32,000 nt of DNA from Candidatus Saccharimonadota bacterium (GTDB lineage: Bacteria; Patescibacteriota; Patescibacteriia; 2-12-FULL-60-25), in NCBI GenBank assembly GCA_016699205.1, contig CP064964.1, positions 570,001-602,000 of the forward strand. The letters are read 5' to 3'. Positions within the stretch are counted from its first letter, which is position 1, and the number at the start of each line of letters is the position of its first letter. Below, piece after piece: positions 5,896-25,035 of this stretch. Position numbers and translations under genes: made by a program. The notes beneath the pieces are model-generated. The model was not told where the DNA came from. It did no database searches and was given only the letters and a program-made list of their open reading frames with translations.

Positions 5896-5932
5896 GGCCC
5901 CGACCAGCAATGGATCGGGGCCTCGTTTTTTT
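5896..5932. terminator. Bidirectional intrinsic terminator
   Basis: Stem GGCCCCGA 5896-5903 / TCGGGGCC 5915-5922, T-run 5925-5932. It lies between convergent genes. Confidence 0.7.
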
Positions 5933-5933
5933 C

Positions 5934-7629: not shown

Positions 7630-7682
7630 GCAGATATGGTGGCCTAGCTGGGGCCAGAGGGCAAGGTATCCCGTGAAATGAG

Positions 7683-7715
7683 AAACGCCGCCCCGACAGA
7701 GTCGGGACGGCGTTT
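7683..7715 (-). terminator. Intrinsic terminator closing the 17-cistron array
   Basis: Arms AAACGCCGCCCCGAC 7683-7697 and GTCGGGACGGCGTTT 7701-7715 (14 bp, 1 mismatch). On the minus strand this is followed by UUUCUCAUUU. Confidence 0.65.
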
Positions 7716-7728
7716 CAGAGGGTGCCCG

Positions 7729-9480
7729 TTAGGGCGCGATGGCGATGGTGCGCAGCGAGAGATCTCCGAGTCCGTACTCGTTGATCCAGTCGCGCGAACC
7801 GCCAGTCGTTGCGGTGAGCGTGTTGTGCGGGGAATCGGTCACATCGGACCAGGCGACGACGAACGAAGCGCTCGCGCCGCCAGGACCGGAGTCCGTTCCC
7901 TGGTCGATGGACGCGGATGGACGCGGGCCGACAGAACCGACGATATCATCGGCCAGGTAGCCGGTGGCAGTGTCGGTTGCGGTCGAGGCAGCGATGCCGA
8001 TGGACAGGACGTCCGTTCCGAGGATGTCGCCCTGAAGCGCCATCTGTACCTCGATCACGGCCGTACCGTCGACGGCGAGGCCTCCCGGGAAGGAGAGCCA
8101 CGCGCGTGCGACATCCGGCGCAGGGAAGAGGTAGACGGCGCTACGGAGATCGGTTCCGTCTTCTGCGAAGATCGTGGCCGAGTCTACCGGTCCGCCGTCC
8201 CGAAGGACGTTCATGCCGTAGAACGAGTACGACGGCGTGGTCGTCGCGTAGTCGGGCGTCATGGTGCGATCGAACTCGAGCAGGATGCGTCCGAGCTCGC
8301 CGCGGCCGGTGACGGTCATGCGCAGGAAGGTGAAGGAGCGGCCCCGGAAGAGCATCGCATCCGTCACTTCCTCGAGCGCGATCGAGAGCGAGCTTCCGCG
8401 TGCCACGAGCGTGTTGCCCGTGGTCGGCGCGGAAGACGAGGTGCAGGGCGCGGCCGAAGTCGCGCCAGTACCACTGACGCTCTCGAAGCCGAGGGCGATG
8501 CGGTTGCCGGACACCGGAGTGCCAGCAGCCGAACCGACCGACGAGCGAGGCACGAGCGTCGCGAGACGCGCGCGCAGCTCGAGCGGCTGCTCGACGTCGC
8601 GATTCAGGATGGACATGCCACCCGTCAGCGTGATGTCGATGCTCGTGTCTGCGCCGGCGACCGCCGTTCCGACTTCCTCGCCGCCGATGAAGACGGCAAT
8701 GTCGTCGTAGGAGGCGGGATCACCTGCGAGGGTGATGCTCGCCTGCTCGAGAACGATGTTCTCGCCGGTGGCGGTGATCGTTCCGCTCGCGATGAGCTGG
8801 AGCGTGCCGTCGGGAACGATCATGCCGGTGGGACTGGCGGGATCGAACTCGACGACGATGTCGCCGGCTGGAGCAACGGGAACGCCGAGCATGGGATCTT
8901 CTCCCGTTGCACCGGCTTCACGCATGGCTTCCGCGGTGACGTTCACGGGCACGGCGCCCATGTCCATACCGAGAGCCTCGATGTCGACGACGTCCGCGAT
9001 GCCGACCGTGACGAGCTCGCCCGACGGATTGTCGAGCGCGCTGTCGAAGTCACAGCGGACGCCGAGACGCAGCTCCCCCATCGCAGGAACGAGCACCGAA
9101 AGACCGGTGAACGCCATGCGACCGGAAGCATCCGGGATGACCGCCGACGAGATGAGGTTGTCCGCATCGTCGTACAGCGAGCAGTTCTCCACCACACGTG
9201 CGAAGTCGCTCGCGCGGAAGGAGCCCGTGATATTGGCCTGACCGGTGAGGGTCAGCGTGGGAACACTCGTGTCCGGATCACCAGGGTCCGAGGTGAGAAT
9301 GACATCGTTGACGGGAACGAGCTCCCCGCCGGCGACGCCACCGCTCGAACCCGACGACTCGATGTCCGCCGTGAGAGCGGCGTTGGTCGAGCTGACCGGA
9401 AGGGTCGACGGATTGGTGCTGCAGGCAATGAGCAGCACGATGCTGCTCAGGGTGTAAAGGAGCTTTCGTACCTGTACCAT
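7729..9480 (-). CDS. Array cistron A17: large lipoprotein, unknown function, C-terminal WSD...GGSRDW module
   Basis: GGAGG lies 5 nt upstream of ATG 9480. The signal peptide has a lipobox (MVQVRKLLYTLSSIVLLIAC). The 583-aa T/G/A-rich beta-type sequence has a C-terminus paralogous to A06. Stop is TAA. Confidence 0.75.
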   Translation of the reverse strand: MVQVRKLLYTLSSIVLLIACSTNPSTLPVSSTNAALTADIESSGSSGGVAGGELVPVNDVILTSDPGDPDTSVPTLTLTGQANITGSFRASDFARVVENCSLYDDADNLISSAVIPDASGRMAFTGLSVLVPAMGELRLGVRCDFDSALDNPSGELVTVGIADVVDIEALGMDMGAVPVNVTAEAMREAGATGEDPMLGVPVAPAGDIVVEFDPASPTGMIVPDGTLQLIASGTITATGENIVLEQASITLAGDPASYDDIAVFIGGEEVGTAVAGADTSIDITLTGGMSILNRDVEQPLELRARLATLVPRSSVGSAAGTPVSGNRIALGFESVSGTGATSAAPCTSSSAPTTGNTLVARGSSLSIALEEVTDAMLFRGRSFTFLRMTVTGRGELGRILLEFDRTMTPDYATTTPSYSFYGMNVLRDGGPVDSATIFAEDGTDLRSAVYLFPAPDVARAWLSFPGGLAVDGTAVIEVQMALQGDILGTDVLSIGIAASTATDTATGYLADDIVGSVGPRPSASIDQGTDSGPGGASASFVVAWSDVTDSPHNTLTATTGGSRDWINEYGLGDLSLRTIAIAP

Positions 9481-9560
9481 TACTTCCTCCATGTAAAATA
9501 TTACACCTTTCAGGGGTTTATGCAACGCGCATAAGCCTCTGAAGGAGTGCGGGAACCGGC
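9481..9560 (-). repeat. Intercistronic spacer IE16 (divergent member): long imperfect hairpin plus SD
   Basis: In mRNA sense: CCUUCAGAGGCUUAUGC-GCGUU-GCAUAAACCCCUGAAAGG, followed by GGAGGAAGUA-AUG. Confidence 0.4.
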
Positions 9561-10571
9561 TCAACTCCGATGTATTTCTACATTGGATGAGCAGGTTCCC
9601 GATGGCTCAGAATGAGCCAGAAACGGTGAGGGTCGCGTGATCGGTCGAGACCGAAGGCGAGACCAGGACACCGGTTGCAGGAGCGTGGCGCCCGCACCAG
9701 CCGAGGCCAGTCCGAGCGCGAGGAAGACGTACTGCAGCGCCTCGAGCGTTGCACCCTCGGAGCAAAGGCCGCGTACGTGACCGACCTGCTGCATGGCGTC
9801 GGGGACGCTGAGGCCATCCACCGGGAGGATGTTGCCGTCGCTCGCGTTGGAGCAGGCGTCACCGCCGGAACCGAACGTGAGGCGATGACGATAGTCGATC
9901 AGCGACGGGTCGCTGTTCAGATCGTTGAGACGTATCCAGACCGGGATGTCGGCGAGGAGCAGCGCCGCACCGAGACCGATGAGCGACCAGCCTGCCCACT
10001 CGTGGTTGTACGAGGCAGGAGCCGGATGCGGATCGAGGATGACGTCGGACGAAGGCGGAATGACGTCGGCGACCGCCGGAACCGGATTGGGCGAGACGTG
10101 CAGGCAGTCGATGAGCGATGGTCCTGCCACAGACGCCATGCTGTCGATCTGCTCTTGCGAAGGCATCAGCGGAAGACGGCCCGTGTAGTGCGAGACGACG
10201 CGATGCTGGTGAAGGTCGAAGTAGTTGAGCTCGACCTCGAGCTCTTCTGCGATGTCGGTGTTGACCCTGTGGGTCGTACCGAAGACGAGCGTGCCGACAG
10301 ACATCGCGTTCGCGATCCGATCGAGACACTCGATGTTCGTCGAGGCGCAATCGTGAACGAGCACCATCTGCGCGAGCGAGATGTCGCGATCCGACACATC
10401 GCAACCGCGAGCCTCGAGGGCCGTGCGGAGCGAATGCGTCAGGCGACGCGCCTGATCATCATCCCCTTCCATCGAGTTGATGCCGAGAACGAGGACGGAC
10501 TGCGCGGAAGCCATTGCGGGTTGCGTGATGATGAACAGAAGGAACAGGTACGAGAGCATTTGAATGTGCAT
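9561..10571 (-). CDS. Array cistron A16: secreted/membrane protein, unknown function
   Basis: GGAGG lies 6 nt upstream of ATG 10571. The signal peptide is MHIQMLSYLFLLFIITQPAMASA. Two later hydrophobic segments are present. 336 aa, TGA stop. Confidence 0.7.
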   Translation of the reverse strand: MHIQMLSYLFLLFIITQPAMASAQSVLVLGINSMEGDDDQARRLTHSLRTALEARGCDVSDRDISLAQMVLVHDCASTNIECLDRIANAMSVGTLVFGTTHRVNTDIAEELEVELNYFDLHQHRVVSHYTGRLPLMPSQEQIDSMASVAGPSLIDCLHVSPNPVPAVADVIPPSSDVILDPHPAPASYNHEWAGWSLIGLGAALLLADIPVWIRLNDLNSDPSLIDYRHRLTFGSGGDACSNASDGNILPVDGLSVPDAMQQVGHVRGLCSEGATLEALQYVFLALGLASAGAGATLLQPVSWSRLRSRPITRPSPFLAHSEPSGTCSSNVEIHRS

Positions 10572-10680
10572 TGCACACCTCCATCTGAGATTCACGACCT
10601 TCGCCACCATGGCGGGGTTATGAATCCAAGAGGAGCCTCCTGCCGCTGGTTTCACCCAGACGGAAGAAGCAGAGAAACGG
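10572..10680 (-). repeat. Intercistronic element IE15, family D
   Basis: Core 10626-10663 (CCAAGAGGAGCCTCCTGCCGCTGGTTTCACCCAGACGG) is homologous to 18874-18911. Hairpin 2 is CGCCA-TGG-TGGCG. The SD is GGAGG. Confidence 0.7.
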
Positions 10681-11385
10681 TCAGAATGATGGTGTTGTCG
10701 TCACATGTACGAAGCACACGTCACGAGACATGCCGTCGATGCGCAGCGATGTGCTGACGAGTTCGGCCTCGACCGGCAAGCAGCGCGCAACCGGATCACA
10801 ACGCTGAACCGAGAGATGCAAGAGCGCATCGTCCGGACAGGATGCCGTGGAATCGCTTCCGATCCCTGCCGTGTGTCCGGCAAATCCGTCACCGGAACGC
10901 TCGGCGAAGTCGCCTTCTAGGATGAAGCCGAAGGATTCTTCCGCCCTCACCCGGAAGGCAAAGACAATCGGGAGCTCCTGTTCCGGAATTCCTTCATCCC
11001 ACTCGGCGCTTCTGCGGCACTCGAGCCAGTCGAGAACGCATTCGTGATCGAGCACGTCCGAGACTGCCCCATCCACGACACGGATGTTGCCACCCGTGCC
11101 GAAGTAGGATCGGATGCGGCCGCCATAGGCGACCATGCCATCCATCGCTGAGGTGATGCGCACCTTGTAGACGACCTCGTTTGGAGGCAGCACGTCTACA
11201 GGATCATGCCAGTAGTGGAAGTAGTTGGCGGGACCGTCCGGATGCGGACCGCAGGAAGCGGGGTTGTACTCCCGCGTGCAGGCGCTGACCGGAAGCGGAA
11301 CGGGATTCTCCTCGCGCTGATGCGAGAGATAGCAACCCGAGATCCACGATGCGAACAACGTGATGATTGTGATGCGAATGTACAT
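10681..11385 (-). CDS. Array cistron A15: lipoprotein, unknown function
   Basis: GGAGG lies 4 nt upstream of ATG 11385. Lipobox signal peptide MYIRITIITLFASWISGC. 234 aa, TGA stop. Confidence 0.75.
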   Translation of the reverse strand: MYIRITIITLFASWISGCYLSHQREENPVPLPVSACTREYNPASCGPHPDGPANYFHYWHDPVDVLPPNEVVYKVRITSAMDGMVAYGGRIRSYFGTGGNIRVVDGAVSDVLDHECVLDWLECRRSAEWDEGIPEQELPIVFAFRVRAEESFGFILEGDFAERSGDGFAGHTAGIGSDSTASCPDDALLHLSVQRCDPVARCLPVEAELVSTSLRIDGMSRDVCFVHVTTTPSF

Positions 11386-11522
11386 GTGTCCTCCAGCTTC
11401 GGCCTCCGACGGAAATCGTCAGAAGGCGGAGAGGAGAGCCGATCGACCGCGAGTGAGCGCGGGATCGGCTTCCAGTCTGGTTCTGGATTCCCGCCTTCGC
11501 GGGAATGACAGATGAGAAGGTG
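11386..11522 (-). repeat. Intercistronic element IE14, family E, carrying an extra ATTCCC-N8-GGGAAT palindrome
   Basis: Core 11420-11470 is homologous to 12181-12227 (hairpin CCGCG-AGTGAG-CGCGG). The inserted palindrome ATTCCCGCCTTCGCGGGAAT lies at 11486-11505. The TAG stop sits in GAAGGTGCTAG. Confidence 0.75.
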
Positions 11523-12122
11523 CTAGAGAATCTCGAAGCGGTTGCTCCAGAGCGTCTCGATGTCGACGCTGTAACGCATGTCGTCGAGGATCTGGTCTGC
11601 ACCGGTGATGCCGATGCGGAACGAGCTACCCGACGAGAGTGGCGCCGTGCGCACGAGAACGAGCATGTTCACGCGCGAGTCGGTCAGCGGGAGCGTGCGG
11701 ATGTGCTCGTCGAGCTCCACGCAGACATGCGTGCTGCCCGAGAAGCCACCCATGTGCACTCCGTGCATGAACGTCGTGCGCGAGATCGGCCCGAGAGACG
11801 CGATGGCGACATCTGCGATGTCCGCGGGATCACCATCGAGCTCGAGGCAGATCGCGGACAGGTCCTGGCTGTGACCGATCCAGGCTCGCGCGACCTCGTG
11901 CCACTCGCCGTCGCCTGCGATGAGATCACCTCCCATGGGCGTGTCGCCCGGAGTGATGTCGACGGTCGGCACAGGGCCGGCGTCGGTGAGGACGGGGCCC
12001 GAGTCGCCGATCGTGGGACCGGCGTCAGCCATCGGCATCGCCATGTGGGACGAGTTGCAGCCGAGAGTGACGAAGCAAGCGAACGAGACGAACAGAACCA
12101 TCAACGTGTTGCGAATGTGCAC
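11523..12122 (-). CDS. Array cistron A14: lipoprotein with DAG-rich linker, unknown function
   Basis: GGAGG lies 6 nt upstream of GTG 12122. Signal peptide (M)HIRNTLMVLFVSFACFVTLGC. 199 aa, TAG stop. Confidence 0.7.
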   Translation of the reverse strand: MHIRNTLMVLFVSFACFVTLGCNSSHMAMPMADAGPTIGDSGPVLTDAGPVPTVDITPGDTPMGGDLIAGDGEWHEVARAWIGHSQDLSAICLELDGDPADIADVAIASLGPISRTTFMHGVHMGGFSGSTHVCVELDEHIRTLPLTDSRVNMLVLVRTAPLSSGSSFRIGITGADQILDDMRYSVDIETLWSNRFEIL

Positions 12123-12253
12123 TTGGCACCTCCATCTTCGGCCTCCGTCCCGTAAAGTCTGCACTATGCAGATCACGGGACAGAAGGCGGAGAGGAGGCC
12201 CGATCGACCGCGAGTGAACGCGGGATCAGAGCCAGTTTAACAGAGTAAAAGAA
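12123..12253 (-). repeat. Intercistronic element IE13, family E with hairpin H2
   Basis: Core 12181-12227 has hairpin CCGCG-AGTGAA-CGCGG. H2 hairpin at 12147-12181 is homologous to 13726-13767 with compensatory inner-stem changes. Confidence 0.75.
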
Positions 12254-13081
12254 CTACTTCTTGGGCGGACCCAGGTGTTCGCGGACGAAGCGCGTGGCGG
12301 CCTCGAGCTCCTTGAAGGAGCTGGCTTTCACGAACTGGCGCGAGCCGTGCACGGGGCCGCTCATCGGACGTCCCTCCGCGTCCTTGCGATCGGAGAACGG
12401 GAAGTTCTCGAGACCGAGGGACGGGCGGAACGTGCCGATGAAGAAGATGCCGTAGACCTCGTTGTACTGGACGCCCCAGTCGTAGCCGCTGATGTAGGCG
12501 CCCTGTAGTCCGCCGTCGCGGATGACGAAGGGGATGCCGTCGACGAGGGTGAAGTTCTTGCGCATCGAGAGCAGCGTGTCGTACGCGGCGGCGATGCGCA
12601 TGGGCGGATTCTGCGCGAGCGCGCGGAACGCGTGGAGCTGGCGGGCGAACGACTCGTTGTCGATACCGCCCTCCTTGCAGATGGAGCAGGCGGCGAGCCA
12701 CCAGCAGGTCTCGGACTCGGCATCCATCTTGATGGACGCCTCGCTGCCGAGGCCCAGGTAGAACTCGCTGCGCACTTGCTCGACCGCCGCCTCGGTGTAG
12801 GCGGCGTGGAGCGTGGCGGAGAGCGTCTGCTTCTCGGCCGGGATCATGTTGAGCGCGCAGGCGATGCCGGCGTCGAAGCCGGGGGCCGTGTCCAACATGG
12901 TGGGCACACGCGAGACGAGCGAGCGCTCGCCGTCGATGTATACGGGCCAGCCGCCGAGTCCCGCGATGCGGGGAACGGACAGGCGGACTTGCTCGCGCAG
13001 GAAGTCGAGATCGGTGACCGTGAATTGCTTCATGCCATCGATCATGAGAAGGAACATGTCGGTTGCGACCAATTGATTCAT
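12254..13081 (-). CDS. Array cistron A13: hypothetical soluble protein
   Basis: GGAGG lies 6 nt upstream of ATG 13081. 275 aa with GC3-rich codons, TAG stop. No family recognised. Confidence 0.75.
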   Translation of the reverse strand: MNQLVATDMFLLMIDGMKQFTVTDLDFLREQVRLSVPRIAGLGGWPVYIDGERSLVSRVPTMLDTAPGFDAGIACALNMIPAEKQTLSATLHAAYTEAAVEQVRSEFYLGLGSEASIKMDAESETCWWLAACSICKEGGIDNESFARQLHAFRALAQNPPMRIAAAYDTLLSMRKNFTLVDGIPFVIRDGGLQGAYISGYDWGVQYNEVYGIFFIGTFRPSLGLENFPFSDRKDAEGRPMSGPVHGSRQFVKASSFKELEAATRFVREHLGPPKK

Positions 13082-13216
13082 CTAGAACCTCCAGCTTGGA
13101 ATCCCGATTTCTCGCAGTAGCGCGAGTTTGATCGGGAGTCCGAGAAGAGGGCGGCAGCGTCGAGACGAGTGACGGGGCCGCGCTTATGGGGAAGTGAAGG
13201 GGCGGAAGGGAAGGTG
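13082..13216 (-). repeat. Intercistronic element IE12, family A
   Basis: The 50-nt core 13136-13185 is identical to 13768-13817, 14327-14376 and 14932-14981. It has a unique hairpin 2 (CCCGAT...ATCGGG around CTCGC-AGTAGC-GCGAG). The TAG stop sits in GAAGGGAAGGTGCTAC. Confidence 0.85.
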
Positions 13217-13705
13217 CTACACGCGGACGAACAGGAAGCGGCGGTCAGCGTCCCACTCGAGCTCGAACCAGCGGTTGCCGAGGCCACGCTCGTCGCCGCG
13301 GCCGCTCAGGACCGGGACGTACCGACGGTTGCCGCCGCTGTCGATGAAGGAGCCGAGATCGACGATCCAGAACTTGCGCTGAAGACCAGGGTTGGCCTTG
13401 GAGAAGGCTTCGCGCTCGGCTGGGAAGGCTAAGCGGTAGCCGTTGCCCTTGGCCCACTCGATCGCCTGCTCACTCGTGGAGGCGCGATCGAACTTCTTGA
13501 GGAAAACAACCTTGTCACCAACGGAAGGCGTGATCTCACGTAGCGACTTGTGGAGCTCGAGCATGTACTCGCTCTCGTTCCACACATCGCTCACCCAGTC
13601 GTAGGCCAACTTGAGGTCGGCGAAGGCTGGGTTCGTGGTCGAGGTGACCGTGATGCGGTAGTGATCCGCGGGAAGATCGGTCTGAACACTCTGAAGACTT
13701 GTCAT
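13217..13705 (-). CDS. Array cistron A12: paralog family member (with A09, A10, A11), unknown function
   Basis: GGAGG lies 6 nt upstream of ATG 13705. 162 aa with MTSLQS..., ...QRKFWIVDLGSF..., ...RFLFVRV. About two-thirds identical to A10 by eye. TAG stop. Confidence 0.8.
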   Translation of the reverse strand: MTSLQSVQTDLPADHYRITVTSTTNPAFADLKLAYDWVSDVWNESEYMLELHKSLREITPSVGDKVVFLKKFDRASTSEQAIEWAKGNGYRLAFPAEREAFSKANPGLQRKFWIVDLGSFIDSGGNRRYVPVLSGRGDERGLGNRWFELEWDADRRFLFVRV

Positions 13706-13842
13706 CTCTACCTCCAGCTTGGAGTCACCATCCCGTAAAATTCGCACGATGCGAATCACGGGATGATGAGTCCGAGAAGAGGGCGGCAGCGTCGAGACGA
13801 GTGACGGGGCCGCGCTTTCAGAAAGGTAAGGAGGAACAGAAA
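13706..13842 (-). repeat. Intercistronic element IE11, family A with hairpin H2
   Basis: Core 13768-13817, H2 hairpin 13726-13767. The post-stop box reads UUCCUCCUUACC in mRNA sense. Confidence 0.85.
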
Positions 13843-14289
13843 CTACTTGATCTCACGGAAAGCCATGCAACGATGGCCTGCTACACGCCTATCTTCGATC
13901 CAGGCGCCACGAAGCTCACGATCCTGACCTTGACGAGAAAAGAATGGATAGTCGAGGCGGCCATCAGACCATCGGAAGAGCCTGCTGTCCTCGAATGGGA
14001 TCGTCGAAGAGTGACCCTCGGGATCATTCTCCATGATCCAGCAGAGGTAAGCCGGGACGTTCCCATCAACACTAAGCCCCTTGAAGTGCTTACGCGCTTC
14101 TTCTGTGGTCGTAACCTGATCGGTACCCCACTCGATGGCTTCGTATGACCTGCCGACTTCGCCGCGCATGAAGTCCCATTCGAAGGTATGGAACCTGTGC
14201 AAGCTGATGCGGCGGAATCTACTTTCGAACTTCGCCATGAACTCGGCTGTAGTCAGATCAGGTATGATTATTTTTTGAGAGCTTGTCAT
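13843..14289 (-). CDS. Array cistron A11: distant paralog of A09/A10/A12, unknown function
   Basis: GGAGG lies 6 nt upstream of ATG 14289. 148 aa with MTSSQK..., ...YEAIEWG.... It appears visibly less GC-rich than its neighbours. TAG stop. Confidence 0.7.
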   Translation of the reverse strand: MTSSQKIIIPDLTTAEFMAKFESRFRRISLHRFHTFEWDFMRGEVGRSYEAIEWGTDQVTTTEEARKHFKGLSVDGNVPAYLCWIMENDPEGHSSTIPFEDSRLFRWSDGRLDYPFFSRQGQDRELRGAWIEDRRVAGHRCMAFREIK

Positions 14290-14406
14290 CTCAATCCTCC
14301 AGCTTGGAGTCACCACACGTTGTGATGAGTCCGAGAAGAGGGCGGCAGCGTCGAGACGAGTGACGGGGCCGCGCTTATGGGGAAGTGAAGGGGCGGGAAG
14401 GAAGTG
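14290..14406 (-). repeat. Intercistronic element IE10, family A with hairpin H3
   Basis: Core 14327-14376. H3 is CACCACA-CGT-TGTGATG at 14311-14327. Confidence 0.85.
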
Positions 14407-14895
14407 CTACTCGCGGACGAACAGGAAGCGGACGTCGGCATGCCACTCGTTGCCGAACAAGTAGCGGCCGAGGTCGCGCCCGCCATCGGAGCCGCACAGA
14501 ACCGGGACATACCGGCCGCCGTCGTCGACGAGGAAGGAGCCGAGGTCCACGATCCAGAACTTCCGCTGGATGTCGGGGTTGGCCTTGGAGAAGGCCTCGC
14601 GCTCGCAGGGGAAGGCCGGGCGATAGCCGTGGCTCTTGCCCCACTCGATCGCTTCCTCACTCGAGGTGTGACGGTCGAACTTCTTGATGAAGACGACCTT
14701 GTCACCAGTGGTGGGCTCGAGCTCGCGCAGAGACTCGTGGAGCTCGAGCTTGTAGTCGCCCTCGCACCACACCCGACTCACGCCGTCGCCGTAGTTGGCA
14801 ATGAGACCGGCGTAGGCAGGGATCGCGGTCGAGGTGACCGTGATGCGGTAGTGATCCGCGGGAAGCGCGTTCTGTACACTCTGAAGACTTGTCAT
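14407..14895 (-). CDS. Array cistron A10: paralog family member, unknown function
   Basis: 162-aa ORF. The first ~69 nt are nearly identical to A12 (4 differences by hand). The SD upstream is replaced by an A-run. TAG stop. Confidence 0.75.
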   Translation of the reverse strand: MTSLQSVQNALPADHYRITVTSTAIPAYAGLIANYGDGVSRVWCEGDYKLELHESLRELEPTTGDKVVFIKKFDRHTSSEEAIEWGKSHGYRPAFPCEREAFSKANPDIQRKFWIVDLGSFLVDDGGRYVPVLCGSDGGRDLGRYLFGNEWHADVRFLFVRE

Positions 14896-15001
14896 CTCTA
14901 TTTTTAGCTTGGAGTCACCACACTGCGTGATGAGTCCGAGAAGAGGGCGGCAGCGTCGAGACGAGTGACGGGGCCGCGCTTAGGATGAAGAAGGGAAGGT
15001 G
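14896..15001 (-). repeat. Intercistronic element IE9, family A with hairpin H3, SD mutated
   Basis: Core 14932-14981, H3 14916-14932. Plus-strand ATTTTT at 14900-14905 replaces the ACCTCC found in the sister copies. Confidence 0.85.
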
Positions 15002-15451
15002 CTACTTGCGGACGGCTAGGAAGATGTAGCCACGAACCCACCGGAACGGATATTCGATCCAGTACATGCCGAGGTAGCGACCGGCGTCGCCCCCGTTCGC
15101 GCACGGCGAGCCGAGACCGCCGCCTTGCCAGCAGACAGAGCCGAGAGCGACGATCGGGAACTTGCGCTGCTCGTCGGGGTACTGCTTGGTAAAGCCGAGC
15201 AGCTCCTCATAGAGAGCGGGGCGGAACCCGAGGCGGTCGAGCTCGGCGAGGATCGCGTCCGTGTGCATCTCCTTGTCGAGATGCACGAACTCGAACTCGA
15301 TCTCTCGACTCTCGGTCGAAACGTCCTTGCAGATGTCGATCGCCTTGAAAACCGCGCCGTTGAGGGGGACGTCCACCCAGTCGTACGCCTTTTTGAGGTC
15401 AGTGTACGAGGGCTGACGGTACTCGACGTGGGCATTGAAGGAACTGGTCAT
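15002..15451 (-). CDS. Array cistron A09: paralog family member, unknown function
   Basis: GGAGG lies 6 nt upstream of the second ATG (15451). 149 aa with MTSSFN..., ...AYDWV..., ...QRKFPIVALGS..., ...IFLAVRK. TAG stop. Confidence 0.75.
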   Translation of the reverse strand: MTSSFNAHVEYRQPSYTDLKKAYDWVDVPLNGAVFKAIDICKDVSTESREIEFEFVHLDKEMHTDAILAELDRLGFRPALYEELLGFTKQYPDEQRKFPIVALGSVCWQGGGLGSPCANGGDAGRYLGMYWIEYPFRWVRGYIFLAVRK

Positions 15452-15584
15452 CATTTACCTCCACCTTGGACCTCCGACCTCTCGCGATCTTGCGAGGTTG
15501 GTCAGAAGTCCGAGAAGAGATGCTTCCGGCCGCTAGTTTCATCTAGGCGGTAGAAGCGAGAAGAGAAAGGGCGGTTGGTGCGCA
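15452..15584 (-). repeat. Intercistronic element IE8: unique hairpin 1 plus hairpin H1
   Basis: AAGTCCGAGAAGAG box at ~15507. Hairpin GCTTCCGGCCGCTAG-TTTCAT-CTAGGCGGTAGAAGC. H1 at 15469-15503 is homologous to 19645-19678 and 20178-20212. Confidence 0.7.
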
Positions 15585-15827
15585 TCATGAGATCGCTACC
15601 GATACGACGATGACCACGATCGCGAGGATGGTGGCGATGGTCATGGTGAGCGCGTAGAACGGGGTGCGCGTGAGCTCGCCGGGGCGGAAGTTGTGGAAGC
15701 CAAAGGCGATGCCGAGCGCGATGATGCCGGCTTGGCCCGAGCGGAACAGAATCTCACCGACGACGAGCGCGATGAGAAAGAGCAAGACGACGAGCGTGAT
15801 CGCGATGATCATGAATGTCTCCATCAT
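15585..15827 (-). CDS. Array cistron A08: small polytopic membrane protein
   Basis: 80 aa with about three hydrophobic helices (METFMIIAITLVVLLFLIALVV...). The SD is weak (GGTGG). The start could be 15827 or 15824. TGA stop. Confidence 0.55.
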   Translation of the reverse strand: MMETFMIIAITLVVLLFLIALVVGEILFRSGQAGIIALGIAFGFHNFRPGELTRTPFYALTMTIATILAIVVIVVSVAIS

Positions 15828-15927
15828 CGGCCACCGAACTCGACACTGCGTCGGGTTGCGGGGGCCAGTGAGGAGAGCCGACCGTTGAGTGAACAACGGT
15901 GCGGCTCGATCCAGCGATTGGAAGGTG
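15828..15927 (-). repeat. Intercistronic element IE7, family B
   Basis: Core 15870-15914 is identical to 16806-16850 (hairpin GAGCCG-ACCGTTG-AGTGAA-CAACGGT-CGGCTC). The TAG stop sits in GGAAGGTGCTAG. Confidence 0.8.
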
Positions 15928-16761
15928 CTAGCTGCCGCAGTAGTGGTCGATCTCGTATTGGATCGTGGCTTCGCGGTAGAGGCGGTCGCCGTCGAACAGT
16001 TCAGCGTTGATGATCGTCTCGCCGACGCAGAACGTGACGAAGAACCCATCCATCATCATGATGTCGCGTCCGCGCAGCCACGGCTCGGCGAGATAGTACG
16101 TGACGGTCGGGTCGGCGATCCTTCGGAGGACATTGCCGTGGTCGACGACGTAGCTCGCGGGATCCGTGATGATCGCGACGGTTACGACACCGGGACGCAT
16201 CGGCACATTGCCGTTGATTCGGATGGAGGCGAGCAGCTCATCTGGAATCTGCGTCACCTGTCCGCAGGCGTAGTCGTCACGACCGAACCGCACGTCGCGG
16301 GATGGATCGAGATACCAGCTCGTGAGGAACTGGGTTGTCGGGAAGACGTATCGGTTACCATCGTTGGCGATGTAGTAGATCTGGCTTCCAGATCCCTTCA
16401 CCAGCATTCCCGGCTCGACATGGTCTGCCGTCGGGAAGACGCCCTCGATCGCACAGCAGCCGCGGAATCCTCCGCGATGCTCGACGTCGGGCGTCCAAGG
16501 ATCGCAGAACGCATATCGACCGAGCGGTGCGACATGCGCATCAGGCGCGGCGAAGGCGTCTGGCTCGACATGGGCGTCGGTGCCCGCATCGGATCCTGCA
16601 TCCGGCGTCGGCATGGGGGCCGCGTCGGCAAGGACCGTGGCGGCGTCGCTCAGCGGCAGACCTGCATCGGACGCGGGTGCCGGGCAGGCGTAGTTGATGC
16701 TGGTACAGCCGTTCATCGCCATGAAGGAGATGAGGGCGAGTGCGATCTTGCTGATGTTCAT
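15928..16761 (-). CDS. Array cistron A07: lipoprotein; N-terminal export module shared with A06
   Basis: GGAGG lies 5 nt upstream of ATG 16761. Signal peptide MNISKIALALISFMAMNGC with a DAAPMPTPDAGSD linker. 277 aa, TAG stop. Confidence 0.8.
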   Translation of the reverse strand: MNISKIALALISFMAMNGCTSINYACPAPASDAGLPLSDAATVLADAAPMPTPDAGSDAGTDAHVEPDAFAAPDAHVAPLGRYAFCDPWTPDVEHRGGFRGCCAIEGVFPTADHVEPGMLVKGSGSQIYYIANDGNRYVFPTTQFLTSWYLDPSRDVRFGRDDYACGQVTQIPDELLASIRINGNVPMRPGVVTVAIITDPASYVVDHGNVLRRIADPTVTYYLAEPWLRGRDIMMMDGFFVTFCVGETIINAELFDGDRLYREATIQYEIDHYCGS

Positions 16762-16890
16762 GCGAACCTCCATCTTGGAGCCACCACACATTGTGATGGG
16801 TCCGAGAGGAGAGCCGACCGTTGAGTGAACAACGGTGCGGCTCGATCCAGAGTATGTCGCGCGATGCGTGTCGCGTGACGCGTGAAAGAA
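16762..16890 (-). repeat. Intercistronic element IE6, family B with hairpin H3
   Basis: Core 16806-16850, H3 16782-16798. An extra tandem TGTCGCGCGATGCG/TGTCGCGTGACGCG lies next to the stop. Confidence 0.8.
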
Positions 16891-18267
16891 CTAGCGCGAC
16901 AGCGTCTGCGTCTGAGTGAGGTCCTCGATGTAGAGGCCGTCGGTCCAGTCGCGGGAGCCGCCGCAGCAGCCGTAGAAGTCGGAGTGCGGGACCTCCGAGA
17001 GATCGGACCAGATGAATCCGGCAGCGATCGGAGGAACCGTGCCGGCCGAACCCCACGGGCTCACGTCGAGCGCCGAGTGGATCGGATCGTCGAGCAGGTA
17101 GCCCGTCGAGCCGTTCAACGTGCGGTGGAACGTGAGAGAGATTGTGTCACCCGCGTGCACATCGCTCGGCACAGCCTGCAGGGTGTAGGAGCTGCCACTC
17201 CCAGTCACCGTCTCACCGTCGTCGTGGAAGACGATGATGAGGCGGTGTGAGACGCCGCTCGAGAACGAGATGGCGCCGGCCTCGAGGTTGTTGGCGTACT
17301 CGTCGACGATGTCGTAGTCCGCGGTGTTCATCAGGGTCGAGCCCCGACGGAGACCGAAGCCCGAGAACGTCAGGTCGCCGCTCGAGATCGCGGTGAACGC
17401 GATCGAGTGGAACGAGACCGAACCCGCTGAGTCGGCAGAGACCTGGAACCGGTAGAGGTCCTGGCTCGAGCCGTCGGCGAGCGTCGTCGTTGAGAGCGAC
17501 TGACGCGTGACCGTTGGCTTGGTGCGTCGGACCACGAACTCGTTCCCGTACATGGGATCGAAGTGCGTACTCTCGACGGTGCTTCCGATGCGATACTCGA
17601 TGCCGTAGGCACCGAGGCGGAAACGGTCGCCAGAGTTGCACACGCCGACCGTTGCTCCGCTCACGGATGCCGACGACTGGACGTTTGCAACCCGCACCCA
17701 GATCTGGAAGTAGCCGTAACCGTCTGTGCCGACACTGATCGGTGAGCCGGTGATGTCGATGCGCGTGTACGAGGAGCCAGCACCGGACGGGAACGTTCCC
17801 GATCCGCGAATGACTCCTTCGGAAGCGATCGACACCTGGGTCAGGTCGCCGTAGTCGCCATCGAGCATGACGTTGACGCCTTCGAGCGAAGCGATGGAAC
17901 CATCACTCGCGCGGAAGCGGTAGCTCGCGACGTTTTGCCAGACATCGGGTCCGGCGACGAGGATCGTCGACTGCCGCATGGTGTGCGGCTCGATGATGAT
18001 CGCGGGGCCGATCGCTGCGTCGGCCTCGACGATGACGGCGCTGTCGCTGCCCGCGTCGGGCGTGGGCAGCGGTGCCGCGTCGCTTGCGACGTACATGCCC
18101 GCATCCCCCATCGGGATACCGGCGTCGCCCATCAGCATCGGCCTTGCGCCGGAATCGAGCTCAGCTCGACTGCTGTCGCTTCCGCCGAAGATGATGTTGA
18201 TGGTGGTGCAGCCGTTCATCGCCATGAGGGCGACGAGGGCGAGCGCGATCTGCTTGATGCTGTTCAA
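16891..18267 (-). CDS. Array cistron A06: lipoprotein; N-terminus like A07, C-terminus like A17
   Basis: GGAGG lies 4 nt upstream of TTG 18267, at the position homologous to the A07 ATG. Signal peptide (M)NSIKQIALALVALMAMNGC with a DAAPLPTPDAGSD linker. C-terminal ...FIWSDLSEVPH...GGSRDW.... 458 aa, TAG stop. The 212-codon upstream extension of the tracked ORF is rejected. Confidence 0.7.
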   Translation of the reverse strand: MNSIKQIALALVALMAMNGCTTINIIFGGSDSSRAELDSGARPMLMGDAGIPMGDAGMYVASDAAPLPTPDAGSDSAVIVEADAAIGPAIIIEPHTMRQSTILVAGPDVWQNVASYRFRASDGSIASLEGVNVMLDGDYGDLTQVSIASEGVIRGSGTFPSGAGSSYTRIDITGSPISVGTDGYGYFQIWVRVANVQSSASVSGATVGVCNSGDRFRLGAYGIEYRIGSTVESTHFDPMYGNEFVVRRTKPTVTRQSLSTTTLADGSSQDLYRFQVSADSAGSVSFHSIAFTAISSGDLTFSGFGLRRGSTLMNTADYDIVDEYANNLEAGAISFSSGVSHRLIIVFHDDGETVTGSGSSYTLQAVPSDVHAGDTISLTFHRTLNGSTGYLLDDPIHSALDVSPWGSAGTVPPIAAGFIWSDLSEVPHSDFYGCCGGSRDWTDGLYIEDLTQTQTLSR

Positions 18268-18392
18268 GGAGCCTCCGAATTTGTTGTGAGTTGTTGCTGT
18301 TCTTTCATCGTTGATCCACGACCGAGTCGCGGATCCAAGAGAAAGCCCATGAGAAGATTTTGTTTCGGTCCATGGGTAGACCGTCGGATGCA
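18268..18392 (-). repeat. Intercistronic element IE5, diverged family C
   Basis: Core 18335-18376 (CCAAGAGAAAGCCCATGAGAAGATTTTGTTTCGGTCCATGGG) resembles 19683-19725. Hairpin 2 is GATCCGCGAC-UCG-GUCGUGGAUC in mRNA sense. Confidence 0.6.
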
Positions 18393-18830
18393 TCACTGCA
18401 TCCTGTCGTGGAATGGGAGCGGGAGCTTGCGCTCGACGGGGCGGATGACGCTGGCGAGCGATTCCCGCTGGCGCTCGAGCTTGTCGTCGAACGAATCGCA
18501 CTCCTTCCACGCGGCGCGGGCCTTGTAGATGAAGCGGATGCCGATCGACGTGAACATCACCCCAAAGGTGAAGACCACGCCGACAGGAAGGAAGTCGGGC
18601 ACGCGCGGCGCGATCACGTAGACCGCGTTGACGCAGAGGGCGAGTCCGATCGAGCTCACGACGACCGCGAGCAGCAAGTACGCGATCACCGCGTCGAGCT
18701 GGCGTCCGCGGAGCACCACGAGCTTTTCGTTGCGCTTCTGCGGCTCGGGCTCGGGGACGTGGCGGACCACGCGACGGTTGCGGTAGACGGCGAGGTCGAT
18801 GGGGCGACGAGCGAGCGGGCTGTTGTTCAA
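18393..18830 (-). CDS. Array cistron A05: membrane protein (two central TM helices)
   Basis: GGAGG lies 7 nt upstream of TTG 18830. 145 aa, TGA stop. No family recognised. Confidence 0.6.
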   Translation of the reverse strand: MNNSPLARRPIDLAVYRNRRVVRHVPEPEPQKRNEKLVVLRGRQLDAVIAYLLLAVVVSSIGLALCVNAVYVIAPRVPDFLPVGVVFTFGVMFTSIGIRFIYKARAAWKECDSFDDKLERQRESLASVIRPVERKLPLPFHDRMQ

Positions 18831-18935
18831 ATGATTGCCTCCGGCTTAGGTCCGCGACGAGAGTGTCGTGGAGCCAAGGGGAGGTTCGTGCCGCTGGTTT
18901 CACCCAGACGGTCGAACGGGAGAGGGAAGGTGCAG
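18831..18935 (-). repeat. Intercistronic element IE4, family D
   Basis: Core 18874-18911 is homologous to 10626-10663 (hairpin CCGCTGG-TTTCAC-CCAGACGG). The SD context is CCUAAGCCGGAGG. Confidence 0.7.
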
Positions 18936-19268
18936 CTATCGTCTCTTCTTGTAGATCTCACAGAGGCTGCGGGTGCTGTAGTACAGGATCTGGCAGCTCA
19001 CCGCCGCGATGTGTACGGCCACATACGCTACCGCGAGATAGAGAGGTATCTCCGGATTGATTCCGTCGACCTTGAAGCCCAGGAAGAAGAACCAAAGGCC
19101 GCATGCACCCATCCCCGCTCGCAACAGATGTGCGACGTGAGCCGTTTCCGTCGCGTTCCGATCGTACTTCTGCTCGTGGCGGAAGTACTTGCGAAGACCA
19201 TCGATGTTCATGAACAGTCCGAGGATCGCGCAGACGGTGAGCAGTGCGTAGAAGATCACCTGGTTCAT
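18936..19268 (-). CDS. Array cistron A04: small polytopic membrane protein
   Basis: GGAGG lies 6 nt upstream of ATG 19268. 110 aa with about three hydrophobic helices. TAG stop. Confidence 0.7.
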   Translation of the reverse strand: MNQVIFYALLTVCAILGLFMNIDGLRKYFRHEQKYDRNATETAHVAHLLRAGMGACGLWFFFLGFKVDGINPEIPLYLAVAYVAVHIAAVSCQILYYSTRSLCEIYKKRR

Positions 19269-19380
19269 TCTGTGCCTCCGGCTTAGGTCCACCACAATGT
19301 GTGATGGAGCCAAGAAGAGGGCGGCCTGCGTCAAGACGAGTGACGGGGACCGCGGCTTCAGAGGTTAAGAAGGGAAGGAG
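19269..19380 (-). repeat. Intercistronic element IE3, diverged family A with hairpin H3
   Basis: Core 19307-19358 (GAGCCAAGAAGAGGGCGGCCTGCGTCAAGACGAGTGACGGGGACCGCGGCTT). H3 at 19290-19306. The TAG stop sits in GAAGGGAAGGAGCTAG. Confidence 0.7.
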
Positions 19381-19626
19381 CTAGCGATAGCGTGAAGTGC
19401 TCGGTGGAGAATAGTCGATGCTGATGAAGTTCTTGGCGCCGGTGTTGAACCAGCGCAAGTTCTTGCTCTGATAGTCCTCCGGGACCCCGCAGTTTTCTCG
19501 GGTGACACGGAGACAGATCATGCTCTCGTTGACCTCCATGAGCTCACCGCGAATATGCGAGGCTCTAACTTCTTCGTTTCGCAACTGGGCGACAGTCACG
19601 ATCTTTCCGATCAAATCTTTGAGCAT
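19381..19626 (-). CDS. Array cistron A03: small hypothetical protein
   Basis: GGAGG lies 6 nt upstream of ATG 19626. 81 aa, TAG stop. No family recognised. Confidence 0.65.
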   Translation of the reverse strand: MLKDLIGKIVTVAQLRNEEVRASHIRGELMEVNESMICLRVTRENCGVPEDYQSKNLRWFNTGAKNFISIDYSPPSTSRYR

Positions 19627-19741
19627 CGTATGCCTCCAGCTTTGGCCTCCGACCTCTCGCGATGTTGCGAGGTTGGTCAGAAGTCCAAGAAGAGTCCCCT
19701 GAGAAGTTTTTGTTTGGTGCAGGGGCACACCGTGAAAGGAG
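19627..19741 (-). repeat. Intercistronic element IE2, family C with hairpin H1
   Basis: Almost the whole spacer matches 20162-20274. Core 19683-19725 (hairpin CCCCTG...CAGGGG), H1 19645-19678. Confidence 0.85.
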
Positions 19742-20161
19742 CTAGAGGATCACGCGAAGCGGGAGGTTGGCCTCCTTCACGCGCTCGGCGACTCCCGGGT
19801 AGGAGTACTGGCCTCCGTCGGAGAAGCTCTCGAGCTGTAGCCCGAGCGGCTTCAGGTCGTGAGCGACGAGCATCGTGTTCAGACGCTCGAAGGACTGCTC
19901 GCCGTCGTCGGCGTCTCGCCAGAGCGCGCGGCCATCGGCCTCGGCCTTGGTCAGCGCGTCGACGATCTTGCCGTGGACCGCTTGGCCTTCGGCGTCGTTC
20001 TTGTAGAACCACTTCACCTCGTTGTACTTGCCCGAGGGATCGAAGGCGTGCTGGCGCCGACAGCCGAAGTAGAACAGGCCGGTCGCGAGATCGCTCTCGG
20101 TGACGATGCCATCGCGGAGCGCACGCAGAAGCGCAGTGAACGAAACGAAGAGTGCGGTCAT
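19742..20161 (-). CDS. Array cistron A02: hypothetical soluble protein
   Basis: GGAGG lies 6 nt upstream of ATG 20161. 139 aa, TAG stop. No family recognised. Confidence 0.7.
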   Translation of the reverse strand: MTALFVSFTALLRALRDGIVTESDLATGLFYFGCRRQHAFDPSGKYNEVKWFYKNDAEGQAVHGKIVDALTKAEADGRALWRDADDGEQSFERLNTMLVAHDLKPLGLQLESFSDGGQYSYPGVAERVKEANLPLRVIL

Positions 20162-20274
20162 GAGAACCTCCACCTTTGACCTCCGACCTCTCGCGATGTT
20201 GCGAGGTTGGTCAGAAGTCCAAGAAGAGTCCCCTGAGAAGTTTTTTGTTTGGTGCAGGGGCACACCGTTGAAGA
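20162..20274 (-). repeat. Intercistronic element IE1, family C with hairpin H1
   Basis: Core 20217-20260, H1 20178-20212. It is a near-duplicate of IE2. Confidence 0.85.
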
Positions 20275-20481
20275 TCAGTTGTAGAGGACGAGCACGCCGG
20301 GCTCGACGGTGATGGTGACGCCGTCTTCCACGTAGCTCGAGGCCTCGCCGATCAGGTAGACCTCGGGGGCGCGGACGGTCTTGTCCGTGTCGGCGAGGGC
20401 GGTGCTGGTGCAGCCGGAGATGTTGGCGGTGATGGGGGCGAAGGCGATGAGGGCGAGGATGAGGCGGATGGTCTGGTTCAC
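20275..20481 (-). CDS. Array cistron A01: small lipoprotein
   Basis: AAGGAG lies 6 nt upstream of GTG 20481. Signal peptide (M)NQTIRLILALIAFAPITANISGC. 68 aa, TGA stop. Confidence 0.65.
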   Translation of the reverse strand: MNQTIRLILALIAFAPITANISGCTSTALADTDKTVRAPEVYLIGEASSYVEDGVTITVEPGVLVLYN

Positions 20482-20609
20482 AGGGAGCTCCTTGGTTTTC
20501 AGCCACGACCGAAATGGTCATGGACAGACTAAAACCAGCCCGTGGTCGCGGACTGGCTTGAGTCTTTTATTGTGAAATGGCGACCAACCCATTCCTTTAC
20601 TGACCATAT

Positions 20610-20638
20610 AATATAGCACAATAAGTCCTTTTTGTCAA
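20610..20638 (-). promoter_or_regulatory. Near-consensus sigma70-type promoter driving the array
   Basis: On the minus strand, TTGACA (rc of 20633-20638), a 17-nt spacer ending TGC, then TATATT (rc of 20610-20615). The predicted TSS at ~20603 gives a ~120-nt leader. Confidence 0.65.
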
Positions 20639-20659
20639 GCAAAGTGAACATTATTATTG

Positions 20660-20760
20660 GCTAAGGTTAGCGGATATTACTAACGATTGTTAGCGGTTTT
20701 TTACAGAATATTCTGTTAAAGAACTGACATCGCTAATATTAGCCAATGGCTAGGGTTAGC
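20660..20760. promoter_or_regulatory. Cluster of four TTAGC-type palindromic operator-like sites plus CAGAATATTCTG
   Basis: GCTAA-GG-TTAGC 20660-20671, CTAAC-GATT-GTTAG 20680-20693, GCTAAT-ATTAGC 20732-20743 and GCTAG-GG-TTAGC 20749-20760. The perfect palindrome CAGAATATTCTG lies at 20704-20715. Confidence 0.45.
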
Positions 20761-24819: not shown

Positions 24820-24882
24820 AGGACACCTCCGCGCCGGAGTGAAACATAATATTGGCGGATTGTAAAGGGATTGGACGTAAAC

Positions 24883-24905
24883 AAAAATCCCCCGATTGGG
24901 GGATT
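24883..24905 (-). terminator. Intrinsic terminator downstream of tRNA-Ala
   Basis: Stem AATCCCCC/GGGGGATT 24886-24905 with loop GATT. On the minus strand it is followed by UUUUUGUUU. Confidence 0.6.
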
Positions 24906-24911
24906 TCTGTA

Positions 24912-24988: not shown

Positions 24989-25035
24989 AAAGACTTCAGC
25001 GGGCTGAATCTTGCCAAAAAACACCATTTAACGCA

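Follow-up and report, generated by a model that had tools for sequence, protein, structure and literature searches.

An intercistronic module under structural constraint in an integron-like cassette operon of Candidate Phyla Radiation bacteria, most likely an expression adaptor that doubles as a recombination joint

The 32-kb stretch of contig CP064964.1 described here (positions 570,001 to 602,000; the whole stretch is called the window, and its coordinates are used throughout) carries a GC-rich block at ∼7700 to 20500, with 59 to 66% GC compared with ∼51% in the flanks; for the array the figures are 59 to 62% compared with 45 to 53%. The block encodes on its minus strand 16 tightly packed cistrons (g1 to g16) followed by g17, and the subject of this report is the repeated spacer module that separates g1 to g16 from one another. 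The module is real and belongs to an integron-like cassette operon of Candidate Phyla Radiation (CPR) bacteria; its most likely role is that of an expression adaptor acting on RNA, which also serves as a recombination joint. Other loci and contigs that were compared carry the labels L001 to L039. The features that define the array are as follows.

20610-20638, minus strand: the sole sigma-70-type promoter of the array (TTGACA-17-TATATT with a TG, extended -10), from a promoter scan
20482-20609, minus strand: leader with a conserved GGTCGCCATTTCACAA, a hairpin and U-run, an hp2-like hairpin (loop AUUUC), and an unmasked Shine-Dalgarno (SD) sequence for g1
9561-20481, minus strand: g1 to g16, 16 co-oriented promoterless cistrons coding for 68 to 458 amino acids (g1, 20481-20275; g16, 10571-9561)
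7729-9480, minus strand: g17, a GC-rich lipoprotein gene at the fixed distal end of the array, with its own -10-like box and SD upstream rather than the element
7686-7698, minus strand: terminator-like hairpin and U-run closing the unit, after g17

A scan of the array gave no second strong promoter and no terminator-like site in any spacer, and the one weak terminator-consensus match lies within the g8 coding sequence. With a single promoter, spacers devoid of terminators, and a terminator after g17, the array is likely one transcription unit of ∼12.9 kb. The g1 to g16 products are without a Pfam match at E < 0.001; among them are lipoproteins as well as membrane and cytosolic proteins, several with lipoprotein- or membrane-type N termini. 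The array is flanked on one side by genes coding for a PfkB kinase, an SBF transporter, and a 2-hydroxyacid dehydrogenase, and on the other by DUF2207, RNase P RNA, a FecR-like protein, and a CHASE2 cyclase. The array genes (7729 to 20481) have 81% GC at third codon positions (GC3) compared with 57% in the flanking genes, with GC1 and GC2 being equal, and the GC excess is present in the arrays of all related lineages. A foreign gene pool, biased gene conversion, and codon selection are candidate causes.

The 15 spacers between g1 and g16 (S1 to S15, 111 to 143 nt, minus strand, 10569 to 20277) are built alike. Each has, in mRNA sense, a stop codon, a pyrimidine-rich single-stranded tract (C-rich, G-poor, unstructured, and 15 to 35 nt long), a GC hairpin (hp1), a long SD-masking hairpin that hp1 abuts with a gap of 0 to 4 nt, a further 4 to 9 nt, and the start codon. 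The preliminary description of this DNA had recognized this order, but it took box 2 and the CCAAGCTGGAGG box to be independent; box 2 (CCUCUUCUYGGAC) is complementary to CCAAGCUGGAGG, the two forming the arms of a single long imperfect hairpin, with what had been called "hairpin 2" as the tip. The CU-rich anti-SD arm (CCUCYUCUY...) pairs with the SD arm (...AAGNUGGAGG), and since CCUCY pairs with GGAGG the SD of the next gene is itself base-paired. The 3' part is degenerate in S5, S7, and S9. The individual spacers are listed here.

20159-20277, minus strand: S1, hp1 family C; long SD-masking hairpin 20167-20230 (H1 tip)
19624-19744, minus strand: S2, hp1 family C 19694-19728; long hairpin 19633-19696 (H1)
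19266-19383, minus strand: S3, hp1 diverged A 19321-19353; long hairpin 19275-19321 (H3)
18828-18938, minus strand: S4, hp1 family D with GUGAAA loop 18884-18917; long hairpin 18838-18885
18265-18395, minus strand: S5, hp1 diverged C; hairpin 18302-18346; A-rich insert before the SD; 20.7 bits with the covariance model
16759-16893, minus strand: S6, hp1 family B with UUCACU loop 16812-16842; long hairpin 16767-16815 (H3)
15810-15930, minus strand: S7, hp1 family B 15876-15906; variant long hairpin 15818-15879
15449-15587, minus strand: S8, hp1 D-like with AUGAAA loop 15522-15557; long hairpin 15458-15521 (H1)
14893-15004, minus strand: S9, hp1 family A; hairpin 14895-14947 (H3); SD degenerate (CCAAGCUAAAAA); 29 bits
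14287-14409, minus strand: S10, hp1 family A 14339-14375; long hairpin 14296-14342 (H3)
13703-13845, minus strand: S11, hp1 family A 13780-13816; long hairpin 13711-13783 (H2)
13079-13219, minus strand: S12, hp1 family A 13148-13184; long hairpin 13088-13151 (H1 variant, compensatory changes)
12120-12256, minus strand: S13, hp1 family E with UUCACU loop 12197-12233; long hairpin 12129-12199 (H2, class II arms CCUCCUCUCCGCC / GGCCGAAGAUGGAGG)
11383-11525, minus strand: S14, extra hairpin GUCAUUCCCGCGAAGGCGGGAAUCCAG; hp1 family E 11437-11470; long hairpin 11390-11440
10569-10683, minus strand: S15, hp1 family D 10635-10670; long hairpin 10578-10637

All 15 spacers fold better than dinucleotide-shuffled versions of themselves (z of -2.1 to -6.7). 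The two-box pattern has zero matches expected in shuffles, and CCAAGCTGGAGG with up to two mismatches occurs 15 times against 2.5 expected, 11 of the 15 being in spacers. The S5 variant also precedes the g6 homolog in L031. We note that the degenerate SD before g10 in S9 (14895 to 14912, CCAAGCUAAAAAUAGAGAUG) sits in a module that is otherwise identical in strain L015, where GGAGG is intact. An extra hairpin, GTCATTCCCGCGAAGGCGGGAATCCAG (ATTCCC-N8-GGGAAT), stands between the stop codon and hp1 in S14 (11487 to 11513) and also in L029 (18886) and L030 (10821 and 12582); it resembles the dRS3-type repeats of Neisseria. The CU tract resembles the 3' tail of 16S rRNA.

Repeat search and the sequence itself recover families A to E and the recurring hairpin tips where they had been described, with tip H1 occurring three times, H3 four times, and H2 twice, the H2 copies differing by two compensatory double changes.

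13136, 13768, 14327, and 14932: family A, identical ∼50-nt core; diverged copy at ∼19307
15862-15914 and 16798-16850: family B
19683-19738 and 20217-20273: family C; diverged copy at 18358
10621-10675 and 18869-18923: family D
11420-11466 and 12181-12227: family E

Few module types exist and each is nearly frozen in sequence. Beyond the five hp1 families described from the window, related genomes contribute many more, and the hp1 loops fall into several unrelated classes, G[UUCACU]C being the commonest and the rest comprising GUGAAA/AUGAAA, ACUCGUCUC, a long A-rich class, and others. Conserved loops are UUCACU and GUGAAA in hp1 and AAUUUCG in hairpin 2. Comparison of module types bears out that hairpin 2 assorts independently of hp1. 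The family D loop had been read as an inverted copy of that in B and E, making strand-independent DNA recognition conceivable; the reverse complement of D, G[UUUCAC]C, is however offset by one base from G[UUCACU]C, which leaves both the inversion argument and the recognition derived from it weak.

Both hairpins are maintained by compensatory change, which supports the selection on structure suggested in the preliminary description. Covariation was measured by counting pairs, with 500 shuffles and slid partners as controls. In a MAFFT alignment of 20 short elements, 91% of the pairing is formed and six pairs have changed on both sides; the covariation score is 0.394 compared with 0.175 when shuffled (reached by none of the 500), and slid partners score no more than 0.149. 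A covariance model built from this alignment retrieved 57 elements in eight arrays (55 distinct sequences). For the long hairpin in this larger set, whose alignment is fitted to the model and hence biased towards the structure, 91% of cells are paired, 10 of the 18 pairs have double changes, and the score is 0.357 against 0.163 shuffled (again none of 500) and at most 0.118 with slid partners. The arms covary across classes, including CUCGGAC/GUCCAAG, CUCCGCC/GGCCGAAG, CUCAGAU/AUCGCAG, and CUUGGCU/GRCCUAAG. In the commonest hp1 class the G[UUCACU]C loop is invariant, and six of the eight stem pairs have double changes (0.544 versus 0.194).

An invariant hexaloop on freely covarying stems could point to transcription elongation, with hp1 being a protein-binding boxB/nut-like hairpin and the CU tracts Rho-loading or boxA-like, such that the spacers set polarity or antitermination. 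The C-rich, G-poor unstructured tracts after the stop codons, the untranslated gaps of 100 to 140 nt lacking internal promoters, and the attenuator-like hairpin and U-run of the leader would fit such a role. We consider it improbable, nonetheless, because the hp1 loops belong to several unrelated classes, the boxA likeness is weak, and the constant pairing of the SD with box 2 is left unexplained.

All 57 elements fold with GGAGG paired to CCUCY, at -16 to -52 kcal/mol and mostly at -20 to -44 kcal/mol, and the probability that the SD is unpaired averages 0.07 for the internal cistrons compared with 0.53 for the first, g1. The long hairpin has 17 to 30 rungs, 1x2 and 1x1 internal loops, conserved C.A and C.C mismatches, and a tip of 21 to 47 nt. 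U.G is the commonest pair at two stem positions (40 of 55 and 29 of 55), G.U outnumbers A.C within stems by 32 to 6, and the sense strand of the long hairpin is the more stable in 38 instances versus 16 for the antisense (p = 0.011). hp1 shows no strand bias, and folding of whole spacers gives no strand signal (-1387 versus -1404 kcal/mol, sense and antisense), the signal being confined to the long hairpin alone. Taken together, this mildly favors the transcribed sense strand as the one on which the structure acts.

The module is restricted to arrays. The covariance model matches all 15 spacers of the window and nothing else in it, and over 228 kb (the window and 17 loci) the matches with E < 1e-3 are in array spacers and in sense orientation, with no matches in the array flanks. 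There are two exceptions, a 31-bit hairpin in L020/L021 and a weaker chance match in coding DNA (L028, E 0.0026). The module invariably takes in the SD and the start codon, and it occurs only between array cistrons and only in the sense direction. Scans of genome and metagenome collections returned array loci only, plus chance coding matches, and a scan of a viral collection with the two-box pattern found no copy. Rfam gives nothing at gathering score and nothing at E ≤ 1 across 9400 to 20700, and a literature search found no earlier description for CPR or Uhrbacteria. The module belongs to no known family and is lineage-specific and structurally constrained.

The 31-bit hairpin lies upstream of a PadR-like gene in L020 to L022 (an Acidobacteria-like contig) and was judged convergent rather than a family member; in L021 (2269 to 2313) it is a single hairpin, CUCCUCUCGGAC-N-UCCAAGAUGGAGG, that masks the SD of the PadR-like gene and is preceded by CUUUUAC repeats. 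L007 to L009, L011, L013, L014, L016 to L018, L023 to L025, L027, and L028 were chance matches of the pattern scan within high-GC coding DNA and were discarded on reading.

This distribution bears on whether the spacers are selfish palindromes colonizing intergenic gaps, similar to repetitive extragenic palindromic (REP) sequences and bacterial interspersed mosaic elements (BIMEs) or to miniature inverted-repeat transposable elements (MITEs), which we think very unlikely. The mosaic combination of a few palindromic units does resemble the REPs and BIMEs of enterobacteria and the Neisseria intergenic mosaic elements (NIMEs) and dRS3, which can stabilize upstream mRNA and serve as recombination joints, and the ATTCCC-N8-GGGAAT hairpin is inserted in some spacers. 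Those elements, however, are scattered across the genome in either orientation and without a set relation to start codons, whereas here there is one element per gap in a single operon, in the sense orientation, in constant register to the stop and start codons, and with a predicted functional SD included. None is found outside arrays in the 228 kb, and the same locus carries elements in genomes that are 20 to 30% diverged. A dispersed REP or MITE family, which had been named beforehand as one of the findings that would count against the initial interpretation, is thus not what the covariance model reveals.

The need for such a module is suggested by how the host initiates translation. An SD-like motif is present upstream of only 9 of 45 host genes in the array flanks, and host genes have TGnTAnnAT-type -10 boxes 5 to 15 nt before the ATG (e.g., at 20885, 22922, 25852, 26341, and 28387 in the window, and in the flanks of L001 and L029 to L031), such that they appear to be leaderless or short-leadered. 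The internal array cistrons, unlike the host genes, carry a canonical GGAGG (that of S9 being degenerate). In a mostly SD-less host the internal cistrons of a long operon would need imported ribosome recruitment, and the module supplies it.

DNA-pattern scans and look-ups of cassette homologs turned up this structure elsewhere, in no fewer than seven additional genomes or contigs (L005/L010/L019, L006, L012, L026, L029, L030, L031, and L034 to L039). An array is present in GCA_020854265.1 as well. Wherever the flanks are visible (the window, L006, L010, L012, L029 to L031, and L034/36) the locus is shared and has the order PfkB, conserved promoter and leader, array, and DUF2207. Gene content differs between genomes, and the cassettes are Pfam-less, GC3-rich, and always co-oriented. 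Close relatives are mostly collinear with insertions and deletions, and the more distant L029 and L031 have changes in gene order. Strain comparison, proposed in advance as a check, places these differences at the modules, with genes gained, lost, or replaced there both in relatives and in the near-identical strain L015. The latter is 99.9 to 100% identical to the window, except that g12 (560 bp) is replaced by 345 bp encoding an unrelated membrane protein. The replaced segment runs from the base of hairpin 2 to a point 12 nt past the stop codon, within the CU tract, and has identical A modules on both sides. With a breakpoint in the CU tract rather than at a fixed site, and with identical A modules flanking it, homologous recombination suffices to account for the exchange. 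We note that in another population the array order is the same in all six samples, which shows that hypervariability at short range is not a property of the arrays.

Turnover does not always respect the modules. At 5400 to 5700 of L010 (6200 to 6520 of L005) a truncated g15-family remnant is fused to the 3' region of the g13 ortholog with no spacer element between them; the endpoints of this deletion lie off the module boundaries, one of them inside a gene.

The spacers are better conserved than the genes they separate. Between the window and L006, L010, L012, and L029 to L031, the modules are 84 to 99% identical, compared with 69 to 81% DNA identity for housekeeping genes and 67 to 81% for orthologous cassettes. 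Window positions 16766 to 16850 (S6) are 98.8% identical to L012 over 85 nt even though the genes on both sides are unrelated, and these two genomes share 77% identity in RNase P RNA. The earlier contention that spacers exceed coding DNA in conservation therefore stands, although the neighboring paralogs, given there as about two-thirds identical, share 74 to 88% DNA identity in the case of g10 and g12 (69% for the proteins).

The type of hp1 tends to track the upstream gene family (F5 with A in three of four, F7 with D in three of three, and F2 with C in two of two), and that of the long hairpin the downstream family (F3 with H1 in four of six, F4 with its own type in four of six, and F7 in three of three). 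The usual unit is thus long hairpin, open reading frame (ORF), CU tract, and hp1, with the joint at hp1/CUCYUCU; the hp1 types that go with F3 and F1 are varied and are exceptions.

Could the similarity have arisen incidentally, as an ancestral gene and its spacer were duplicated in tandem and converted, with no function beyond an ordinary ribosome-binding site? The run of paralogs g9 to g12 with identical A modules would be expected from such a history, and repeats 0.5 to 1 kb apart favor conversion. We give this little credence, since most neighboring genes are unrelated, pairing is kept by covariation across sequence classes, and the modules are conserved between genomes and not just within one. 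The architecture is also kept with different sequence in L032 (GCA_027425155.1), a distant CPR relative. The L032 spacers (5916 to 11400) consist, in order, of hp1 with a GUUACUC loop, CAUCCUCUC, a hairpin, GGAAGAGG, and AUG; the g13 homolog in this genome is flanked by a second two-hairpin spacer, also repeated, and the start of the array adjoins a tRNA gene.

Our best explanation, which we hold at about even confidence, is that the spacers are standardized intercistronic expression adaptors acting at the RNA level in a single-promoter cassette operon, and that their repetition also drives the shuffling of cassettes. On the polycistronic RNA, hp1 would close and protect the upstream message, and the long hairpin would keep the internal SD masked until it is opened. 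The likeliest opener is a double-strand-specific cut of the RNase III type, which would release a short SD-bearing 5' end. The module would in this way equip genes that have no promoter with an internal ribosome entry site, in a lineage otherwise using leaderless mRNAs. As a side effect, or a co-selected one, near-identical modules of 50 to 85 nt may provide portable homology through which cassettes are duplicated, deleted, and replaced by homologous recombination. Of the three roles initially put forward (RNA processing or stability, translational control of each cistron, and DNA-level recombination), it is the RNA-level and translational ones that are favored by an SD that is always inside the hairpin, by sense-favoring wobble pairs, and by an SD-less host; site-specific recombination is less likely, no attC core having been found in the window and no recombinase close to the array. 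The repeated modules would suffice as substrates for homologous recombination, which would explain the L015 replacement, the tandem paralogs that share identical A modules, and the lineage-specific insertions and deletions, and orthologous cassettes that diverge like housekeeping genes were counted in favor of vertical, operon-like behavior.

The early region of phage T7 has intercistronic hairpins that are processed by RNase III, and at some RNase III sites the cut frees a masked ribosome-binding site. The modules resemble these in having an imperfect hairpin of about two turns (∼20 bp) with internal loops between the cistrons of one long transcript; the upstream product would likewise end in a hairpin, with the downstream ribosome-binding site at or near the putative cut. 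They differ in being modular (hp1 and long hairpin), in having many sequence classes, and in being chromosomal and tied to cassette turnover, and cleavage here is presumptive. Pairing of an SD with a pyrimidine-rich anti-SD in an imperfect hairpin is also a feature of ROSE (repression of heat shock gene expression) and fourU thermometers and of riboswitch platforms. However, those are weak, meltable, and present once in an operon leader, whereas hairpins of -20 to -44 kcal/mol precede every internal cistron here and have no Rfam match.

Processing, the effects on stability, and unmasking are predictions from sequence, and several observations weigh against the adaptor explanation. Hairpins of -20 to -44 kcal/mol would silence translation unless opened. 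hp1 is without strand bias, and one hp1 class has a loop that is roughly the reverse complement of another. The 84 to 99% identity of the modules, compared with 69 to 81% for housekeeping genes, exceeds what selection on structure alone needs, and identical modules beside unrelated genes point to shuffling at the DNA level or to recognition by sequence. The adaptor explanation also does not account for the GC3 excess (81% versus 57%) that persists in the arrays.

Several of these points would suit an attC-like site instead, in which the long hairpin, or the junction of hp1 with the long hairpin (invariant CUCYUCU), folds in single-stranded DNA for an unlinked recombinase, the array is similar to a cluster of attC sites lacking an integron integrase (CALIN), and the SD is secondary. 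The layout is like that of integron cassette arrays, CALINs and sedentary chromosomal integrons among them, with one strong promoter, a long co-oriented run of up to 19 or more promoterless and mostly ORFan cassettes, and non-host composition. Content and order differ at module joints, through gain and loss, the reordering in L029 and L031, and the clean L015 replacement. A few module types are common to unrelated genes and are far more conserved than coding DNA. The imperfect palindrome at every junction, with conserved arms, conserved mismatches, and a variable tip of 21 to 47 nt, is similar to attC with its R box, L box, and variable terminal structure.

We nevertheless regard an attC-like site, the main rival, as unlikely. 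The RYYYAAC (R'') and GTTRRRY (R') cores are absent, with zero RYYYAAC-N40-130-GTTRRRY pairs on both strands of the whole window. There is no IntI or other recombinase, tyrosine or otherwise, in the 32-kb window including the array flanks, and no recombinase Pfam family within 10 kb of five other arrays (L029, L030, L031, and L034/36). In attC it is the bottom strand that folds better, whereas the wobble statistics here favor the sense (top) strand; the palindrome holds the SD of the next gene, and there is a second hairpin, hp1, in each junction. The right L015 breakpoint is inside the CU tract, between identical flanking A modules, rather than at a fixed site, and the L010 deletion ends within a gene and not at a module. 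Cassettes also evolve at the housekeeping rate, and the array is stable within one population.

The rAID-1 arrays of Bacteroidales provide a further comparison. They are small-gene arrays of >16 kb whose GC is skewed and whose intergenic sequences are repetitive, described as "reminiscent of integrons," and have a conserved XerD-family recombinase at one end and genes coding for homologs of immunity proteins (Ross et al., bioRxiv 10.1101/471110). Skewed GC and repetitive intergenic sequences are found here too, but no linked recombinase was found and the cassettes are without a Pfam match.

A bolder proposal combines the adaptor with site-specific exchange. Uhrbacteria might carry an independently evolved integron-like cassette platform with a fixed site and a regulated strong promoter, whose joints are bifunctional, acting both as an RNA adaptor (masked SD and protective hairpins) and as a DNA crossover site for a recombinase unrelated in position and site sequence to IntI/attC. 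We offer this tentatively, as the less probable course of events. Should the adaptor explanation prove right, the module would represent a natural standardized "expression adaptor" with which a lineage of leaderless single-gene transcripts runs a 17-gene operon of exchangeable accessory genes. It would bear on how CPR bacteria with tiny genomes diversify their surface and accessory proteins, on whether integron-like platforms arose more than once with different sites, and on how internal translation initiation is organized where SD use is rare. At ∼100 nt the module is compact, and it is strongly conserved and amenable to testing; it is of possible interest to builders of synthetic operons.

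The array promoter and the TTAGCCAA boxes upstream of it are kept in L006, L010, L012, and L029 to L031. In the window, TTAGCCAA/TTGGCTAA boxes lie on the minus strand at 20640 to 20700, just 5' of TTGACAAAA...TATATT, and this arrangement is conserved in the same loci. Boxes and promoter are similarly arranged before single GC-rich genes in L001 (9800 to 9880), L004 (9830 to 9930), and L032 (9330 to 9400), and the shared promoter-region boxes suggest a common regulator for GC-rich accessory genes. In the leader (20530 to 20600, minus strand), a conserved GGUCGCCAUUUCACAA is followed by the hairpin and U-run, of which the stem letters vary among genomes with pairing kept. This hairpin looks like an attenuator, and the region is without an Rfam match.

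The product of g12 is identical to a hypothetical protein of a Candidatus Uhrbacteria metagenome-assembled genome (CPR/Patescibacteria), and its paralog is encoded by g10. The g13 gene (12254 to 13081) belongs to a widespread family with 329 homologs, many of them on contigs of 1 to 1.5 Mb. Its AlphaFold model is confident (pLDDT 93, pTM 0.89), but it has no fold match in the PDB better than E 0.02, no PDB sequence match, and no Pfam family, and exact look-ups of g13 for further strain variants returned no record. A second GC-rich block (61% GC) lies at 24000 to 25000 of the window, directly downstream of tRNA-Ala (24912 to 24988), and also at 5300 to 6200 of L006; the codon-position GC values of the ORFs listed in the block near tRNA-Ala are odd, and the frames assigned there are provisional. 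Homologs of the g9 to g12 family are also present as lone GC-rich genes with their own TTGACA...TATATT promoter in L001 and L004 (9800 to 10900 in each). These two loci are unrelated and are without the spacer element, and the lone genes have in common a conserved terminator hairpin (CCCGTTCCGC...GCGGGACGGG).

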